Sequence record: OQ067374.1
DNA: 64,000 nt
Source: Escherichia phage a20
Reading direction: 5' to 3' (one strand)
In this document: positions 805-18,666 of the stretch, piece after piece
How the letters are laid out: each line of letters opens with the position of its first letter
Numbering within the stretch: position 1 is the first letter of the stretch
Made by a program: the position numbers and the translations under genes
The notes under the pieces: generated by a model
The model's database searches: none
What the model was told of the DNA's origin: nothing
Seen by the model: the letters and a program-made list of their open reading frames with translations, nothing else

Positions 805-1170
805 TTAGATATCAAATTCGTTAAGAACTACATCAAAGATTGCTTCGAGATGTTCAGGTTTAGCTCGGTTACTCAGGATATGACGAATCCAAGTTTTAAC
901 CAGAAGTTTACGATTAACACCATTCCAGCAAGGATGAGTACCTAAATCACGCTGACGGAAATCATCATCTAATGCAATTTTAAAATTTGAACCTTCCATC
1001 GTGATTGAAACCGTGATACCGTTTTCAAATCGCATATAAACGTAATTAGGAGTCATGCACTGTTCGATTTCACAAACTGTACCGTTTTCGTGTTTCCATA
1101 AGCAAATAACTTCAGAAGAACCAGCGATACCGTTAGAAACATATTTACGTTCGAAGTTGATGTAGTTCAT
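805..1170 (-). CDS. hypothetical protein (T4 30.x region)
   Basis: 121-aa ORF packed in operon, own upstream promoter. Confidence 0.5.
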   Translation of the reverse strand: MNYINFERKYVSNGIAGSSEVICLWKHENGTVCEIEQCMTPNYVYMRFENGITVSITMEGSNFKIALDDDFRQRDLGTHPCWNGVNRKLLVKTWIRHILSNRAKPEHLEAIFDVVLNEFDI

Positions 1171-2980: not shown

Positions 2981-3277
2981 TTACATAAGAAGCAAACGTT
3001 CTACCGGAGTACCATCAACCGAAATTACTTTATCAAGGCGGAAAGAACGCCACTGACCTAACTCGGTATCGAATGCTCGAACTGATTCACGAGGTTCAGA
3101 ACGAACTTCTGTTGATGGGTTACTATTTTCATATTTGACTTCAAGTTCATCGCGGGAGGCAAACATCGTACGAACATCACCGTTAGCCTTTTCAAACACA
3201 ACACAATGAACGCCTACAGACAGAATAGTTTTAATACGTTCACGAAGAACCATAGTTTCTTGTTCAGTTAAAATCAT
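2981..3277 (-). CDS. hypothetical protein (31.1/31.2 position); ATG start at 3277
   Basis: track ORF begins at GTG; ATG 3 nt after cd stop (TAATATG). Confidence 0.5.
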   Translation of the reverse strand: MILTEQETMVLRERIKTILSVGVHCVVFEKANGDVRTMFASRDELEVKYENSNPSTEVRSEPRESVRAFDTELGQWRSFRLDKVISVDGTPVERLLLM

Positions 3278-10419: not shown

Positions 10420-10922
10420 TTAGAAATATTTTTTGTATGAATTGATTACATTTTGGTCTACATCATTATCAATTTGTGCGACAAGATAAGAACTGATTTC
10501 AACTTCCTGAGGAGCGGCTTGAACTAAATCAGAGTTCAGATATTCACGAATCCAAGGATACGGATGCTTGGTCGGAGCATCAGTGATTGGGCATGGCAAA
10601 CCACACTGTTTCATACGAGACACAGTCAAGTAATCAACAAAAGCACACATACTCTGCGTATTGATACCTGGACATGTACCGTCTTTAAAGAGGTGTGCAG
10701 CCCATTCCTTCTCTTGACTATTTACTTCCATAAAAATGTCAACTGCTTCTTGTTCACATTCTTTAGCAATTTGAACCCACTCATCACCATCAGTACCAGA
10801 TTGAAGTTGACGGATAATGTACTGAGTACCCTTGAGGTGGAGTTGTTCGTCACGAGCAATGAACTTCATAATCTTTGCATTACCTTCCATAATTTCCATA
10901 TTTTTATGGAAGTTAAAGGTAC
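10420..10922 (-). CDS. nrdB: ribonucleotide reductase beta subunit, exon 2
   Basis: C-terminal NrdB sequence; junction reconstructs FYVSFA-C-TFNF matching E. coli FYVSFACSFAF; spliced CDS 392 aa. Confidence 0.75.
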
Positions 10923-12012
10923 CGTATGTTCGATTGAGCTCGCTAATTCTCAACCCGTTCTCTTATGAACTGCTGCATGTTACCATGCAGTCCAGACTAT
11001 ATCACAATCCCGGAGGGATTCTCCCCATTTCGAGTCGCTTGACCCTACGTCCGAAGACTAGTCGTTGAACCTTGTTTTGCAATTGTCGCCGTGCCATCGT
11101 TTATATGTTGATGGTGATAAATCTTTCTTATCACAATATGGACAATTCAATTGAATTCTATTTGGATTTAATTTACATCTGTCATTATGTTTTAGATAAA
11201 ATCCAGGACCTTTACCAATGTGACCACAAAAATCACATGTGATTTCTTTTTGTGCAGGATGGGTCCCGTTCTTAACCATTTCTAATGTTTTTGCTGATGT
11301 TCTTTTCTTATGGTCTTCTGATAAGAAATGATGTGAACCGTCATTTACCCGTTTTGATTGAGTTTCTGACTGCATTTTACCACCGCAAAATACATGAGTA
11401 CCTTCTTTTATAGCTGCAATATTGCGTTCTTTAACTTTTGCAATATGCTCAGCTTGTTGAAAATTATGTATACCTAATGCAACTCTATTTAAATTAGATT
11501 TACGCTGTATTTCACCATCTAAAAGATGAAATGTACCATTTTCTATCTTAGATTTAATAGAGGCAATATTTTTAGCTCGTACTTCAGGGATATTAAAAAT
11601 CTGGATTTCTCTAGATTTTGCGGCTTTAGAAGCTAATTCAGAAATTTCTTCAGGAGAATATTTCATTCTAAGCTTTATAGCATGACAAGCCTGGTAATCT
11701 TTTTGAGCTAAATGTATATCATAATGTTCCTGTATAGAAAGGCACATCAAATTATCTAAATCATTATTTTCACGGTTACCGTCTTTATGATGGATTTCGT
11801 ATGTTCTTCCATCAGAATCTTTAGGTATAGGTCCGTTAGCATCTATCCAAATTTTTCTATAGTTCAATTGTGCATCCTCTTAAAAGTATAATCATATTTA
11901 TATTATACTAATTAAAGGTGCAAGCAAAACCTTGGCTGCTAGTTTTCCTATAAAGGACTTTCCAGCAATTAAAGGAGTTTTCGATAAACGTTACCGTTTA
12001 AAGGCGCATTTT
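10923..12012 (-). mobile_element. group I intron in nrdB (1090 nt) carrying I-TevIII
   Basis: exon 1 ends on U, intron ends on G; boundaries set by frame restoration and conserved Cys. Confidence 0.7.
11058..11867 (-). CDS. I-TevIII: intron-encoded HNH homing endonuclease I-TevIII, full length
   Basis: 269 aa with Cys-rich zinc-finger C-terminus; TTG start after AAGAGGA SD; late-promoter-like TATAAATA at 11887..11894. Confidence 0.7.
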   Translation of the reverse strand: MNYRKIWIDANGPIPKDSDGRTYEIHHKDGNRENNDLDNLMCLSIQEHYDIHLAQKDYQACHAIKLRMKYSPEEISELASKAAKSREIQIFNIPEVRAKNIASIKSKIENGTFHLLDGEIQRKSNLNRVALGIHNFQQAEHIAKVKERNIAAIKEGTHVFCGGKMQSETQSKRVNDGSHHFLSEDHKKRTSAKTLEMVKNGTHPAQKEITCDFCGHIGKGPGFYLKHNDRCKLNPNRIQLNCPYCDKKDLSPSTYKRWHGDNCKTRFND

Positions 12013-12688
12013 ACGCAAAAGATACATAAAAACGAATAGCTTCTAAGGCATTAATAACGTGCAAACAGAGGTAAAGAGATTTCATTAAAGCACGTTTAGC
12101 TTCGGCTTCTTGTTTAATAGCTCGGTTTAAACGAAAGTCGGCATCAGGAGATTCTTTAGCTAATTCTACAAATTCTTTAGCATTTTCCCAATAACGAGTT
12201 TTAACCAGAACATCATCGTAATAGCGACCAATAGATTCAGCTCGTTTCATGATTGCTTCGTCTAATACAATCTCATCAAATACCTTAGATGGGTCCGTAT
12301 AAAGATTTCGCATAATATGAGTATACGAACGAGAGTGAATAGTTTCACTGAATGTCCATGTTGCAACCCACGTATCTAATGAAGGGTCGGAAATCAGTGC
12401 CATAAGTACCGCAGATGGGGCCCTGCCTTGGATAGAATCTAATAATGATTGATACTTAAGATTGTTTGTAAAGATGTCCTGTTGGAACTGAGGAAGCTTA
12501 TTGAACTGCGCAGAGTCCAACATCAAGTTTACCTCTTCTGGGCGCCAGAAAAACGACAATTGCTTTTCAATAAGTTCTTCAAAAACTTTATGTCGCTGAA
12601 TATCATAACGTGCGAGGCCAAGACCAGAACCAAAGAACATTGGTTCATTCAAAACATCGACTTGTTGTGTGTTAAAAACTGTACTCAT
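12013..12688 (-). CDS. nrdB: ribonucleotide reductase beta subunit, exon 1
   Basis: 225 codons of NrdB N-terminus ending ...RFYVSFA. Confidence 0.8.
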
Positions 12689-12727
12689 TATATTTTCTCA
12701 CTTAGTTATTAACTCATCCATGAGTAA

Positions 12728-12750
12728 ATTATAATCAAAAGTCTTAAAGC
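12728..12750 (-). promoter_or_regulatory. putative MotA-dependent middle promoter for nrdB
   Basis: minus strand GCTTTA-N11-TATAAT; Mot box overlaps nrdA stop. Confidence 0.4.
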
Positions 12751-15008
12751 TTACAAGCAGAACAATCTTCAGCTTTAGGTGTTTCTAATTCATAGTCATC
12801 TGTACCTGACCCATCACGAGTGTTATGATAGTAGAGGTTTTTTCCGCCAAAGTACCAGAAGTAAAGCAGATCGTCAAGCATTACTGACATTGGCACTTTA
12901 CCTTTCTCAAATACTGCAGGGTCATAGTAAGTATTAGCAGAAGCAGATTGGCACACCCATTTCAACATGATAGCAACTTGGGTCAAATAAGGTTTATTAC
13001 CTTTCTTAGCAAGTTTCCACGCATAATCGTAAAGACTCATGTTATGTTCGATATTAGGAACAACCTGACGGAAGTTGCCTTCTTTAGATTCTTTAATACT
13101 TACTGGACCACGTGGGGGCTCAATCCCGTTTGTAGAGTTTGATACTTGACTGCTTGACTCACAAGGCATGAGTGCAGACAACGTTGAGTTACGAATTCCA
13201 TGTTCTTTGAGTTCAGCTCGAAGTTCTTCCCAGTCACATACGTAGTTCGGGGCTGCGATTTGGTCAATCTTTTTATTGTACCAGTCGATAGGTAATTCGC
13301 CTCTAGACCATTTAGTGTCTGAATAATACTCGCAACATCCTTTTTCTTTGGCGAGTTTGATTGATGCTTTGATAAGGCCATATTGCAATCTCTCAAACAA
13401 TTCATGAGTCAAATCGTTAGCGTCTTCATATGAAGCAAAGTTAGAAGCTAACCATGCAGCATAGTTCGTAACACCAACACCAAGATTACGACGCTTTTTA
13501 GCTTTTAAAGCTTCTGGAACCGGATAATCCTGATAGTCTAACAGGTTATCAAGTGCACGTACTTGTACTTCAGCAAGTTCATTAATTTTATCTTGGTCTT
13601 GCCAATCAAATTTATCCAATACAAAAGCAGATAATGTGCATAAACCAATTTCAGCATCAGGACCATTCACATCATTAGTTGGAATAGCGATTTCACAACA
13701 TAAGTTACTCTGACGAATTGGAGCTTTTTCACGAATAAACGGAGTGTAGTTATTCGTGTTATCAACAAACTGTGGATAAATTCGAGCAGTACCAGAACGT
13801 TCAGTCATGAACAATTCAAAGAGTTCTAGTGCTTTGATTCTTTTCTTTCTGATTGTTGGGTCTTTTTCAGCTTTCTCATAAAGCTCACGGAATTTATCTT
13901 GATCTTCAAAGAATGAGTAATATAGTTCGCCTGACATTTCGTGAGGGCTAAATAAAGTAATATAATCATTTTTACCAAGGCGTTCCATCATAAGGTCATT
14001 AATCTGAATTCCGTAGTCCATATGTCGAATACGGTTTTCATCCACGCCTTTGTTATTTTTCAGAACTAATAGGTTCTCTACTTCTAAGTGCCACATCGGA
14101 TAATACGCTGTAGCAGCACCACCACGAATACCACCTTGAGAACAAGATTTTACTGCAGTTTGGAAATGTTTCCAGAATGGAATAACACCCGTATGTCGAA
14201 CTTCACCCATACCGATCTTAGAACCTTCTGCACGAAGCATACCAACGTTGATACCAATACCAGCTCGTTTAGAAATATATTCAATAATTGATGCTGAAGT
14301 TTTGTTAATAGATTTTAACGAATCACCGGCTTCAATAACTACACAACTAGAGAACTGGCGAGTCGGAGTACGAGCACCTGCCATAATTGGAGTAGGCAAT
14401 GAAACTTGATGAGTAGAAACGGCGTCATAAAAACGAATAATATGTTTCAAACGGTCATGAGTTTCGTCTTGGTGTAAGGCCATGCCAATAGCCATGATAG
14501 CAAACTGTGGAGTTTCATAAATCTTCCCGGTTGTTTTATCTTTAACTAGATATTTTTCTTTAAGCTGCATAGCACCAGCATAAGTCAGGTCAAAGTCTCG
14601 TTCATGTTTAATCTGTGAATCGAGATAAATGATTTCTTCTGCTGAATATTGAGACAACAGCTCAGGGTCATATTTGCCTTCATTAACACAATAAGAAATA
14701 TGGTCGATAAAAGCAGGCGGTTCAAACTGCCCATATACATCTTTACGAAGTGCAAACATTAGCCCTTTGGCGGCGACATACTGATAATCAGGTTCTTCGA
14801 CAGAAATCGAGTTAGCTGCAACTTTAATACAAATCTTCTGGATATCTTTGGTGCTCATCCCATCGACAAGATGGGTCTTAATTTCTTCGTACAATTCATA
14901 TGGGTCAATTTGTGTTCCTTCACATTGCCAAGTTAAGACTTGAATAATTTTCTGTGCATCAAAATTTTGGGATACACCTGAATTTTTCACTACTTTAAAA
15001 TTATACAT
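12744..15008 (-). CDS. nrdA: ribonucleotide reductase alpha subunit
   Basis: 754 aa, class Ia RNR large subunit; same length as T4 NrdA. Confidence 0.92.
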   Translation of the reverse strand: MYNFKVVKNSGVSQNFDAQKIIQVLTWQCEGTQIDPYELYEEIKTHLVDGMSTKDIQKICIKVAANSISVEEPDYQYVAAKGLMFALRKDVYGQFEPPAFIDHISYCVNEGKYDPELLSQYSAEEIIYLDSQIKHERDFDLTYAGAMQLKEKYLVKDKTTGKIYETPQFAIMAIGMALHQDETHDRLKHIIRFYDAVSTHQVSLPTPIMAGARTPTRQFSSCVVIEAGDSLKSINKTSASIIEYISKRAGIGINVGMLRAEGSKIGMGEVRHTGVIPFWKHFQTAVKSCSQGGIRGGAATAYYPMWHLEVENLLVLKNNKGVDENRIRHMDYGIQINDLMMERLGKNDYITLFSPHEMSGELYYSFFEDQDKFRELYEKAEKDPTIRKKRIKALELFELFMTERSGTARIYPQFVDNTNNYTPFIREKAPIRQSNLCCEIAIPTNDVNGPDAEIGLCTLSAFVLDKFDWQDQDKINELAEVQVRALDNLLDYQDYPVPEALKAKKRRNLGVGVTNYAAWLASNFASYEDANDLTHELFERLQYGLIKASIKLAKEKGCCEYYSDTKWSRGELPIDWYNKKIDQIAAPNYVCDWEELRAELKEHGIRNSTLSALMPCESSSQVSNSTNGIEPPRGPVSIKESKEGNFRQVVPNIEHNMSLYDYAWKLAKKGNKPYLTQVAIMLKWVCQSASANTYYDPAVFEKGKVPMSVMLDDLLYFWYFGGKNLYYHNTRDGSGTDDYELETPKAEDCSACKL

Positions 15009-15636
15009 AATAATTCCATGTTGGATAATTTGATGATTTTAGACGGCGTCTAACCGTTTGGGTGCTCATAGATAAAATTATTGACGCTTCATTTAATGTA
15101 TCATATATTACGTCGTTTATAATTACTTTCTTTGCAAATGGATTCTTAGCTCCTATCATAGCATTAGAAATAGCTTGCTTAGTTGATTCTTTTAATGGGA
15201 CTCCTTTAGAAATTTTTGATTTAATTTTTATATTGTATTGTCCACGTTTTTTACCTAATAAAGAATTTCGTATCTTTTCTTTAGTCTCTTCAGATTTAAC
15301 ATGTCCTAGTTTGGAACGAGATATTTTATCTTTTGTTTTTTGGTCTAATTTTCGCCCTTTAAGCAAATCAACCATTTTTGCTCTAGTCCATCCAAATTCT
15401 TTATTATTTCTAGAACTCATTAAATTAACCGCGGTTGCTAAACCTAAATTGTTCGGATATATTTTTAATAAAAGAAGATGAGCCAAATAATGTTCTGAAT
15501 ATGTTAATTTAACTAGATTGTATGACTCATTGGTGCCACCTAAACATTTTGGGATTATATGATGCCATTCACCATCTATATCTTCAAAATTTCTTTCTTT
15601 ATTTACCAAGTTTTTATATATTTTTAAATAATCCAT
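15001..15636 (-). CDS. free-standing HNH homing endonuclease (Mob-like); start moved to ATG 15636
   Basis: HNH motif WHHIIPKCLGGTNESYNLVKLTYSEHYLAH plus NUMOD-like repeats; stop overlaps nrdA start. Confidence 0.7.
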   Translation of the reverse strand: MDYLKIYKNLVNKERNFEDIDGEWHHIIPKCLGGTNESYNLVKLTYSEHYLAHLLLLKIYPNNLGLATAVNLMSSRNNKEFGWTRAKMVDLLKGRKLDQKTKDKISRSKLGHVKSEETKEKIRNSLLGKKRGQYNIKIKSKISKGVPLKESTKQAISNAMIGAKNPFAKKVIINDVIYDTLNEASIILSMSTQTVRRRLKSSNYPTWNYYV

Positions 15637-15687
15637 AGTATAATCCACTTTGTAGTATCAACGGGATAGTATTTATCCCGTTAATTT

Positions 15688-15966: not shown

Positions 15967-16278
15967 TTATACCGCCATTTTAGCTTTGATAGTTGGATGA
16001 GATTCATAATTTTTAAGAACGAAATCAGAATGTGTCATCGTTCCAGTAACCCAGTCCATTTGGATTTTTGTAGGCCAATTCTCAAAATTACTAGGCCAAT
16101 TAATTTCAAGAGAACACAACTCTTTAGGTTCACGACGAAGAACTTCTTTGCATTGTTCTACATGATTGCTGTAGATATGCGTGTTGCCGCCTGAGAACAC
16201 TAAATCACCTGGGATAAGGTTACACATCTTCGCTACAATATGCGTCAAGGCAGCGTACGAGGCAATGTTGAACGGTAG
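15967..16278 (-). CDS. td: thymidylate synthase, exon 2
   Basis: begins LPFNIASYA...; joined with exon 1 gives 286 aa as in T4. Confidence 0.9.
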   Translation of the reverse strand, partial: LPFNIASYAALTHIVAKMCNLIPGDLVFSGGNTHIYSNHVEQCKEVLRREPKELCSLEINWPSNFENWPTKIQMDWVTGTMTHSDFVLKNYESHPTIKAKMAV

Positions 16279-17294
16279 CATTATGTTCAGATAAGGTCGT
16301 TAATCTTATCCCGGAATTATATCCAGCTGCATGTCACCATGCAGAGCAGACTATATCTCCAACTTGTTAAAGCAAGTTGTCTATCGTTTCGAGTCACTTG
16401 ACCCTACTCCCTAAAGGGATAGTCGTTAGGCATTTATGTAGAACCAATTCCACTTATCAGATTTTACACGGTAAGTAACTAATCCTGATGAAATTTCAAA
16501 ATGTCTAGCCGCATCGGCTGCACATTCAAAAATAATCCCATCGCATGAAATCTTTTTGATGTTAGCTGGCTTTTTGCCTTTCATCTTTTCAGATAGTTTA
16601 GTTTTAGTTTTTTCTGAATGTTTGTGATTAAAGAACGGGTTATTTTCACCTGAACGTTTTCGGCACTTTCCACAAGTATCGGCCGAAGATGGTATGCGAA
16701 CACCGCATTTACAAAACTTGTGGTTTTCTGGATTCCATCGGCCATTTTTACTTCCGTGTTTACCATAAAGAGCTTTCCGACCATCAGGACCAAGCTTAAG
16801 CATCTTAGCTTTAACAGTTTCAGCTCGTTTCTTAGCAATTTCTTCTTTTAATGGATGATTTGAAAGCACATCACCAAAAGACGCATCAGCAATATTATAT
16901 CCATTAATTTTAGAATTTAGCTCTTTAATCCAAAAATTTTCTCGTTCAATAATCAAATCTTTCTCATATGGAATTTCTTCCAGTACAGAGCATTCAAAAA
17001 CATTACCATGTTTATTAAAAGACCTTTGAAATTTTATAGAAGAGTGAACACCGTTTTCAAGGTCTTTAAAATGTCTCTTCCATCTTTTCTCAAAATCTTT
17101 AGCACTTCCAACATACACTTTACCGTTTAAAGTGTTTTTAATCTGATAAATTCCGCTTTTCATAAACACCTCTTTTTATATAGAAGTATTTATTAAAGGG
17201 TAGTCCTACAATTTAGCACGGGATTGTCTACTAGAGAGGTCCCCCGTTTAGATAGATTACAAGTATAAGTCACCTTATACCTAGGCCTAAATTA
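16279..17294 (-). mobile_element. group I intron in td (1016 nt) carrying I-TevI
   Basis: 5' end reads UAAUUUAGGCCUAGGUAUAAGGUGACUUAUACUUG..., 3' end ...CAUAAUG; matches T4 td intron length and remembered sequence. Confidence 0.9.
16426..17163 (-). CDS. I-TevI: intron-encoded GIY-YIG homing endonuclease I-TevI
   Basis: 245 aa from ATG 17163; MKSGIYQIKNTLNGKVYVGSAKDFEKRWKRH... near-identical to T4 I-TevI. Confidence 0.92.
   Translation of the reverse strand: MKSGIYQIKNTLNGKVYVGSAKDFEKRWKRHFKDLENGVHSSIKFQRSFNKHGNVFECSVLEEIPYEKDLIIERENFWIKELNSKINGYNIADASFGDVLSNHPLKEEIAKKRAETVKAKMLKLGPDGRKALYGKHGSKNGRWNPENHKFCKCGVRIPSSADTCGKCRKRSGENNPFFNHKHSEKTKTKLSEKMKGKKPANIKKISCDGIIFECAADAARHFEISSGLVTYRVKSDKWNWFYINA

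Positions 17295-18666
<1,372 letters not shown>

Follow-up and report, generated by a model that had tools for sequence, protein, structure and literature searches.

The described system that most resembles the locus reported here is the nrdB intron of phage RB3 (NC_025419; Eddy and Gold 1991; Robbins et al. 2007, PMC1865063), which shares with it the insertion site, a 269-aa open reading frame (ORF), a late promoter, a Shine-Dalgarno (SD) hairpin and the ribozyme helices. The endonuclease of the RB3 intron, I-TevIII, works as a dimer and confers mobility on the intron (PMC1865063). Mutagenesis of the RB3 enzyme has demonstrated that residues H26, H27, N39 and H48 are required for cleavage and that C211/C214 and C242/C245, located in the zinc fingers, are required for DNA binding (Robbins et al. 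2007, PMC1865063). RB3 is a Tequatrovirus with a mobE gene upstream of nrdB, whereas the phage described here is of the RB69 type and is without mobE.

The td intron with I-TevI and the nrdD intron with I-TevII, both of phage T4, are built on a similar plan, being group IA2 introns with an endonuclease ORF looped out of the core (PMC2988022). Late or middle intron promoters, sequestration of the ribosome-binding site, cleavage at a distance and co-conversion of exon sequence are further features of these two introns that recur here (PMC2988022). Their enzymes are of another kind: I-TevI and I-TevII are GIY-YIG endonucleases, with I-TevI acting as a monomer, whereas I-TevIII is an HNH dimer with two DNA-binding zinc fingers (PMC1865063). 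The promoters of the three intron ORFs of T4 have been mapped by primer extension (PMC2988022). The T4 nrdB intron is not mobile by itself and relies on the endonuclease MobE, which nicks the 5′ end of nrdB (PMC2790892). According to a 2010 review, RB69 is without homing endonuclease genes, intron endonuclease genes are found in the T-even cluster, and recombination of RB69 with T4 had never been seen (PMC2993671).

We analyzed a window of 64,000 nt, the whole stretch of DNA under study, from Escherichia phage a20 (sequence record OQ067374.1). The nrdB gene in this window is divided by an insert that is almost certainly the T-even nrdB group I intron with a full-length I-TevIII gene in its P6a loop. 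The element is an ordinary one that was already known, near-identical sequence being public in GenBank, and it adds little biologically, since work on T4 and RB3 from 1986 to 2010 had already elucidated the intron, its endonuclease and their regulation and homing.

The nrdB exons and the identity of the intron

The divided gene comprises the following features:

12013..12688, minus strand: nrdB exon 1 (676 nt), with codons 1-225 and the first base of Cys226, ending ...UUUGCGU
10923..12012, minus strand: predicted group I (IA2-type) self-splicing intron (1090 nt), placed by base-for-base alignment with the RB3 and T4 nrdB introns
10420..10922, minus strand: nrdB exon 2 (503 nt, including the TAA stop)

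Read without splicing, the minus-strand ORF from 12688 meets a stop at 12011-12013 and codes for NrdB residues 1-225, and a second minus-strand ORF, ending at 10420, codes for the remainder of the NrdB small subunit. When 10923..12012 is taken out, ...UUUGCGU is joined to GUACCUUU..., which yields a single 392-aa frame reading ...RFYVSFA-C-TFNF... across the junction. Residues 3-388 of the spliced NrdB align with E. coli R2 (1piy: RFYVSFACSFAF; E=2e-127) free of gaps at the junction, the spliced product matches Ribonuc_red_sm in Pfam, and the protein sequence at the junction is that of the intron-less nrdB of RB69 and of phage SF. The insertion site is the same as in RB3 and T4, whose records both annotate nrdB as a two-piece join. 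The original prediction for this DNA had given exons at 12013..12688 and 10420..10922 separated by about 1090 nt, and these coordinates proved exact. Its splice sites, with exon 1 ending on U, the intron ending on G and the junction restoring FYVSFA-C-TFNF, were likewise borne out, including the match to E. coli NrdB across the junction.

The intron starts AAAAUGCGCC and ends ...ACAUACG, its last base being G; in the numbering used below, intron position i is window position 12013-i. It is 99.0% identical to the intron of RB3, from which it departs by 14 nucleotide differences and in length (1090 nt against 1091 nt), and 99.3-99.5% identical to that of T4 (NC_000866) over the parts that T4 retains. 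The T4 intron measures 598 nt and uses the same splice sites; it differs from the window by one substitution and a 1-nt indel and is without 491 nt from the proximal half of its ORF, a stretch that includes the HNH domain. The T4 record labels I-TevIII as defective, and the original prediction of a shorter intron with a truncated endonuclease in T4 was right. At seven sites in the 3′ core (intron 938, 1001, 1022, 1029, 1034, 1038 and 1087) the window and T4 agree against RB3. By this alignment, the window intron is in effect the undeleted T4-type form.

Among the 50,697 phage records searched, 190 matched the intron query alone. The full-length intron (at least 80% of the query) was found in 84 phage records, and the others hold T4-like versions of approximately 590-600 nt or ORF-less versions of approximately 300 nt. 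By the classification of their records, full-length copies come from Tequatrovirus, Mosigvirus, Gelderlandvirus and Dhakavirus phages, and an ORF-less form comes from Gaprivervirus. Degenerate forms are common, whether T4-type (598 nt), 587-592 nt long or ORF-less (~304-309 nt). The ORF-less introns of phages PD112 and DCP80 correspond to an exact deletion between two copies of a short repeat that are visible in the window sequence:

11865..11871, minus strand: first copy of the 7-nt direct repeat ACAATTG, at the start of the ORF
11080..11086, minus strand: second copy of ACAATTG

Escherichia phage NRG-P0074 (PQ480333, Mosigvirus) has a copy of the 2301-nt locus that is 99.9% identical over its full length and 100% identical in the intron, the only differences being two substitutions in exon 2. 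Seven other close full-length matches were found (FL31, PTE-Eco05, JM17, WFL6982, WFK, BEU50 and JM10), among which the genus was looked up for WFL6982 only, a Mosigvirus. For annotation, our findings mean that nrdB should be entered as one CDS joined across an intron that holds an I-TevIII gene. Two nrdB fragments and a “hypothetical protein” are listed instead in several GenBank records of near-identical sequence.

The group I ribozyme core

We drew the helices from P1 to P9.1 by hand on the window sequence and counted their pairs on nine homologues from which the ORF had been removed (alignment A1). The two halves of the predicted core flank the ORF:

11924..12012, minus strand: 5′ ribozyme core with the P1 3′ strand (internal guide sequence, intron 6-9), P2 (13-28), the P3 5′ strand (36-41), P4 (46-51/71-76), P5 (56-67) and the P6 and P6a 5′ strands (78-79, 83-89), from the hand-drawn helices and their pair counts
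10923..11080, minus strand: 3′ ribozyme core with the P6a and P6 3′ strands, P7, P7.1, P7.2, the P3 3′ strand, P8, P7′, P9, P9.1 and the terminal G

The drawn structure has 84 pairs in 15 helices. Across the nine ORF-deleted homologues 99.7% of cells are paired, a percentage inflated because the helices were derived from the same sequence, so that compensatory changes are the sole independent evidence. Such changes were found in eight pairs (three in P2, one each in P5, P7.2 and P9, and two in P9.1). None of 500 shuffles reached the observed pairing and compensation, and controls in which the partners were slid by 1-3 columns gave 36-45% paired and no compensatory changes. P3, P4, P6 and P7 are invariant across the homologues and have the support of conservation only; P7 is pseudoknotted with P3.

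In P1, exon 1 GCGU pairs with intron GCGC (positions 6-9), which places U-1 opposite G6 as a U.G pair at the 5′ splice site. Between P7 and the 3′ strand of P3 lie P7.1 (GUC-UUCG-GAC) and P7.2 (GGGUC-AAGC-GACUC), the latter with U-A replaced by C-G in DCP80, a compensatory change. The presence of both P7.1 and P7.2 points to an IA2-type subgroup, to which the T4 introns are known to belong. P6a (GUUUUGC/GCAAAAC) is the helix from which the ORF is looped out, and the final eight codons and the TAG stop of the ORF extend over the 3′ strands of P6a and P6, J6/7 and the 5′ strand of P7.

An Rfam scan of the whole window at gathering scores returned no match. In a permissive scan, Intron_gpI gave a partial match at 10973..11213, covering the 3′ half only (35.6 bits against a cut-off of 50; E=4e-7). 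The score on the window falls below the threshold because the 785-nt ORF segment within P6a splits the core. Natural ORF-less copies pass the same model (RF00028, cut-off 50), with 74.1 bits for DCP80 (309 nt) and 68.6 bits for PD112 (304 nt), and these introns are 92-97% identical to the window intron in the core. We therefore rejected the missing gathering-score match as evidence against an intron, as the permissive scan and the ORF-less homologues show that the ORF disrupts the model. The group I core anticipated by the original prediction could thus be folded from P1 to P9.1 and is supported by comparative evidence, both in its compensatory pairs and in the Rfam matches of its ORF-less homologues.

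That the insert might be something other than an intron, leaving nrdB disrupted or expressed as two separate polypeptides, has next to no probability. Several GenBank records do annotate the halves of nrdB as separate CDSs. Against such a reading, the core is conserved and covarying and its ORF-less homologues pass Rfam, joining the exons restores the reading frame of an essential enzyme, and the homologue in T4 is a textbook case of self-splicing whose gene is annotated as a join (PMC2988022). Under the intron reading, which we retain, nrdB would be transcribed as a single pre-mRNA from which the intron RNA, once folded, excises itself by guanosine-initiated two-step transesterification, joining ...GCGU to GUACC... 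and giving a functional 392-aa NrdB. Guanosine-dependent self-splicing of the T4 homologue is well known, and splicing in the present phage is expected by analogy with the work on T4 and RB3.

The I-TevIII gene and its predicted control

The intron carries a single long ORF, with putative control elements immediately upstream:

11058..11867, minus strand: I-TevIII ORF (269 aa, TTG start), assigned from HNH_3, phrog_12324 and the RB3 comparison
11895..11902, minus strand: TATAAATA, the T4 late-promoter consensus, 27 nt upstream of the I-TevIII TTG, called from its position and conservation
11871..11922, minus strand: predicted hairpin in the P6a loop, in which the SD sequence GAGG (11876..11879) pairs with UGCACCUUU (intron 91-99) and the late promoter lies in the loop

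The TTG start codon is the one annotated in RB3. Residues 4-48 match HNH_3 in Pfam (48.7 bits against a cut-off of 24.8), and the entire protein (residues 1-269 of 269) matches phrog_12324, “intron-like DNA endonuclease” (E=2e-193). Two zinc-finger motifs of the form CX2CX12-13HX3C are located at residues 211-231 and 242-263. A Pfam match of residues 74-114 to FlgM (26.2 bits against a cut-off of 25) was marginal and judged spurious. The protein is identical to RB3 I-TevIII at 267 of 269 residues, the two exceptions being positions 23 (Y here, D in RB3) and 265 (T here, A in RB3). The copies in WFL6982, HY03, S16 and Bp7 also have Y23, which makes RB3 the outlier at this position. All eight residues defined by mutagenesis of the RB3 enzyme (H26, H27, N39, H48, C211, C214, C242 and C245) are present. 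Relative to the 89%-identical copy in phage S16, codon differences comprise 57 synonymous and 29 non-synonymous changes.

The ORF had originally been described as a 269-aa HNH/zinc-finger protein and an intact I-TevIII, to be compared with that of RB3; with the HNH_3 match, both zinc fingers, the catalytic residues and the near-identity to RB3 all in place, calling the gene intact is justified at the level of its sequence. The further suggestion of a potentially active homing element is a fair one, given the full-length ORF, the required residues and the co-conversion tract described below. Activity of I-TevIII in the present phage is presumed by analogy with the RB3 enzyme.

A late-promoter-like sequence upstream of the endonuclease ORF, which had also been part of the original prediction, is present at 11895..11902 and agrees with the mapping of the T4 promoters (PMC2988022). 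The motif TATAAATA shows no enrichment in the AT-rich window, where it occurs 8 times against 7.45 expected by chance. The promoter call consequently draws on its position, its conservation in intact copies and the published T4 mapping: in alignment A1 the motif persists in each of the four copies whose ORF is intact, and three of the five ORF-less or truncated ones have lost it.

The hairpin has a fold z-score of -3.45. Partition-function folding gave the SD sequence an unpaired probability of 0.00-0.04 in the pre-mRNA context versus 0.14-0.90 in the late-promoter transcript. The same arrangement, a promoter within a hairpin that sequesters the SD sequence, has been described for I-TevIII (Edgell et al., PMC2988022). 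By extension from T4 and RB3, the ribosome-binding site of I-TevIII would be locked in the hairpin of early and middle pre-mRNA, and late in infection transcripts initiated at the TATAAATA promoter inside the hairpin would free the site and allow the endonuclease to be made.

A published “operator,” a sequence resembling the homing site and overlapping the I-TevIII promoter, was not convincingly found within the intron. When the first 28 nt of exon 2 were used for the search, the best ungapped match in the intron was 18/28, a score equalled by 29 of 500 shuffles, and this match sits at the start of the ORF, not at the promoter. By eye, intron 93-104 matches in 10 of 12 positions, which is unconvincing.

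An RB3/T4-type tract in an RB69-type nrdB gene

The genes surrounding the intron have a different affinity from the intron itself. The rnlA, denA and nrdA genes and the distal part of nrdB are 91-98.5% identical to RB69 and 68-82% identical to T4/RB3; for the neighbouring genes the identity to T4/RB3 is 68-79%. Neither the RB69-type character of the phage nor the near-identical GenBank copies formed part of the original prediction. The closest record, NRG-P0074, is classified as Mosigvirus and has the same gene order (nrdA-nrdB-denA-rnlA). As in RB69, nrdA and nrdB are separated by a gap of 55 nt without mobE. The nrdB genes of RB69 itself and of the Mosigvirus SF are uninterrupted.

Donor-type sequence is found on both sides of the insertion site:

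12013..12182, minus strand: exon 1 part of the putative co-conversion tract, Tequatrovirus (RB3/T4)-type, solid from -1 to approximately -170 and patchy to approximately -221 (12233)
10915..10922, minus strand: exon 2 part of the tract (+1..+8), with the first RB69-type site at +20 (10903)

Positions in nrdB at which RB69 and RB3 differ were taken as informative sites. Between -170 and +10 of the insertion site, across both exons, 58 of 60 sites are RB3-type and two are RB69-type; elsewhere in nrdB, 14 of 178 are RB3-type and 164 are RB69-type (Fisher p=3e-39). With the intron-less SF as the reference, the corresponding ratios are 35:0 inside the tract and 7:172 outside it. The homing site of RB69/SF (ACGTATCATTTGCAT/GTACTTTCAAC, with the stroke marking the insertion site) differs from the T-even site (ATGTATCTTTTGCGT/GTACCTTTAAC) by five silent changes, and all five positions are of the T-even type here. 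The tract also spans the published I-TevIII cleavage positions.

During homing, double-strand-break repair would copy the intron together with some flanking exon from the donor, and a short donor-type tract flanking the intron is what such repair after I-TevIII cleavage should leave. From its composition and boundaries, we read the tract as co-conversion left by homing across genera. I-TevIII homing probably carried the nrdB intron from Tequatrovirus to Mosigvirus on more than one occasion. Neither the intron variant nor the tract boundaries are the same in the three intron-bearing Mosigviruses compared: the full ORF lies in a T4-type intron in the window and in an RB3-type variant in WFL6982, which has a shorter, different co-conversion tract, and AV109 has a truncated intron of 592 nt. 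These differences suggest several separate acquisitions, or later recombination.

An entry of the intron without I-TevIII cleavage, either by ordinary homologous recombination with a phage of the T-even type or through a cut made by a free-standing endonuclease encoded nearby (trans-homing of the MobE kind), is unlikely. Trans-homing of the nrdB intron driven by MobE has been documented in T4 (PMC2790892), and the nrd region is a hotspot of endonuclease genes, a free-standing HNH gene lying at 15001..15648 in the window. MobE itself could be rejected as the driver, as mobE is absent from the short RB69-like gap between nrdA and nrdB and the first 450 nt of nrdB, the part nicked by MobE, are RB69-type. 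Other routes of entry fit poorly with the form of the tract, which is short, abuts both ends of the intron, takes in the I-TevIII cut sites known from the literature and is longer in exon 1 (~170-220 nt) than in exon 2 (8-19 nt).

It is improbable, too, that the intron splices but carries an inactive I-TevIII, in which case the present copy would be a recently stranded one that persists passively, as in T4. Such a state is favoured by the frequency of degenerate intron versions (598-nt T4-type, 587-592 nt and ORF-less ~304-309 nt) and by the substitution at position 23, three residues ahead of the catalytic pair H26-H27, where the window has Y and RB3, the sole enzyme to have been assayed, has D. 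However, Y23 is the majority state (WFL6982, HY03, S16 and Bp7), the ORF is uninterrupted with every mutationally defined residue in place, and the substitutions relative to S16 are mostly synonymous (57 versus 29). The promoter, SD sequence and hairpin are intact, and the co-conversion tract looks fresh and is centred on the I-TevIII cleavage site. Homing by a functional I-TevIII is the reading that we prefer.

If the intron did cross between the genera in this way, I-TevIII would tolerate the five silent changes in the homing site, and the T-even and RB69 clusters would exchange DNA at homing sites. The sharply bounded tract in an RB69-type backbone would then be a natural record of homing between phage genera, and the intron-less (RB69, SF), truncated (AV109) and ORF-less (PD112, DCP80) states, together with the tract, offer material for studying the cycle of gain, decay and loss of homing elements. 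In the literature collection that we searched, we found no paper describing the passage of the nrdB intron from Tequatrovirus to Mosigvirus, and its documented passage into RB69-type phages is the sole, mildly new angle of the locus. Genomes showing the intron in RB69-type phages have been public since at least 2019.

Variation in the nrdB intron

Comparison of the nrdB insertion site in the Mosigvirus genomes RB69, SF, AV109, WFL6982 and the window distinguished four states. The co-conversion tracts, in which exon sequence of T4/RB3 type flanks the intron within an RB69-type nrdB, have boundaries that are not alike from genome to genome.

States of the nrdB insertion site in Mosigvirus genomes
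RB69, SF: no intron
AV109: truncated intron, 592 nt
WFL6982: full intron, RB3-type
Window: full intron, T4-type

The I-TevIII ORF, which encodes the HNH homing endonuclease of the intron, has a copy of the 7-nt direct repeat ACAATTG on either side (window 11865..11871 and 11080..11086). Phages PD112 and DCP80 have introns that lack the ORF, and the sequence of these introns is precisely what a deletion between the two copies would leave, which suggests that the ORF is lost through the repeat, by slippage or recombination.

Segments of the intron's 3' core, each 50-80 nt long (P7' to P9.1; intron positions 1010..1088, window 10925..11003), were also matched at 84-96% identity in unannotated regions of Pectobacterium, Klebsiella, Vibrio, Aeromonas and Pseudomonas phages, and these matches probably represent related group I introns of other phage groups.

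The nrdB locus in public records

In the records of phages NRG-P0074, FL44 and ESh36, nrdB is entered as two separate CDSs, and small "hypothetical protein" CDSs are annotated within the ribozyme core of the intron (3104..3199 of the NRG-P0074 locus, L002); both features are likely to be annotation artefacts. The translation of the RB69 reference nrdB CDS (NC_004928; 8701..9873 of locus L004) reads LHLRVLSTLSVNFNLV...KLIVKYKEW over ~45 aa, which is unrelated to the LHLKGTQYIIRQLQSG...SQEKEW found at this place in the window, RB3 and T4. DNA identity across this stretch is 95-98%. The record dates from 2003, and the discrepancy looks like either sequencing errors in it or a frameshift that is compensated further on.

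A second split gene, the nrdA-nrdB gap and a free-standing homing endonuclease gene

The thymidylate synthase gene, td, is likewise interrupted (window 15967..17843, minus strand), with the following features:

17292..17843, minus strand: td exon 1 (Thymidylat_synt, 215 bits)
16426..17169, minus strand: I-TevI-type GIY-YIG endonuclease, 247 aa, with a zinc finger and a DNA-binding domain
16327..16557, minus strand: partial match to Rfam Intron_gpI (36.1 bits)
Inside 15967..16281, minus strand: td exon 2

The split gene, the I-TevI-type ORF and the partial Intron_gpI match together indicate that the td intron is also present in this RB69-type phage.

Unlike T4 and RB3, which carry mobE between nrdA and nrdB, the window has no mobE in its 55-nt nrdA-nrdB gap (12689..12743), as is also the case in RB69. 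A free-standing HNH homing endonuclease gene (15001..15648, minus strand; 215 aa) lies immediately upstream of nrdA and overlaps its start. Its product contains the motif EWHHIIPK...NLVKLTYSEHYLAH, matches phrog_655 "homing endonuclease" (E=3e-45) and shows a weak match to an I-TevI-type DNA-binding domain.
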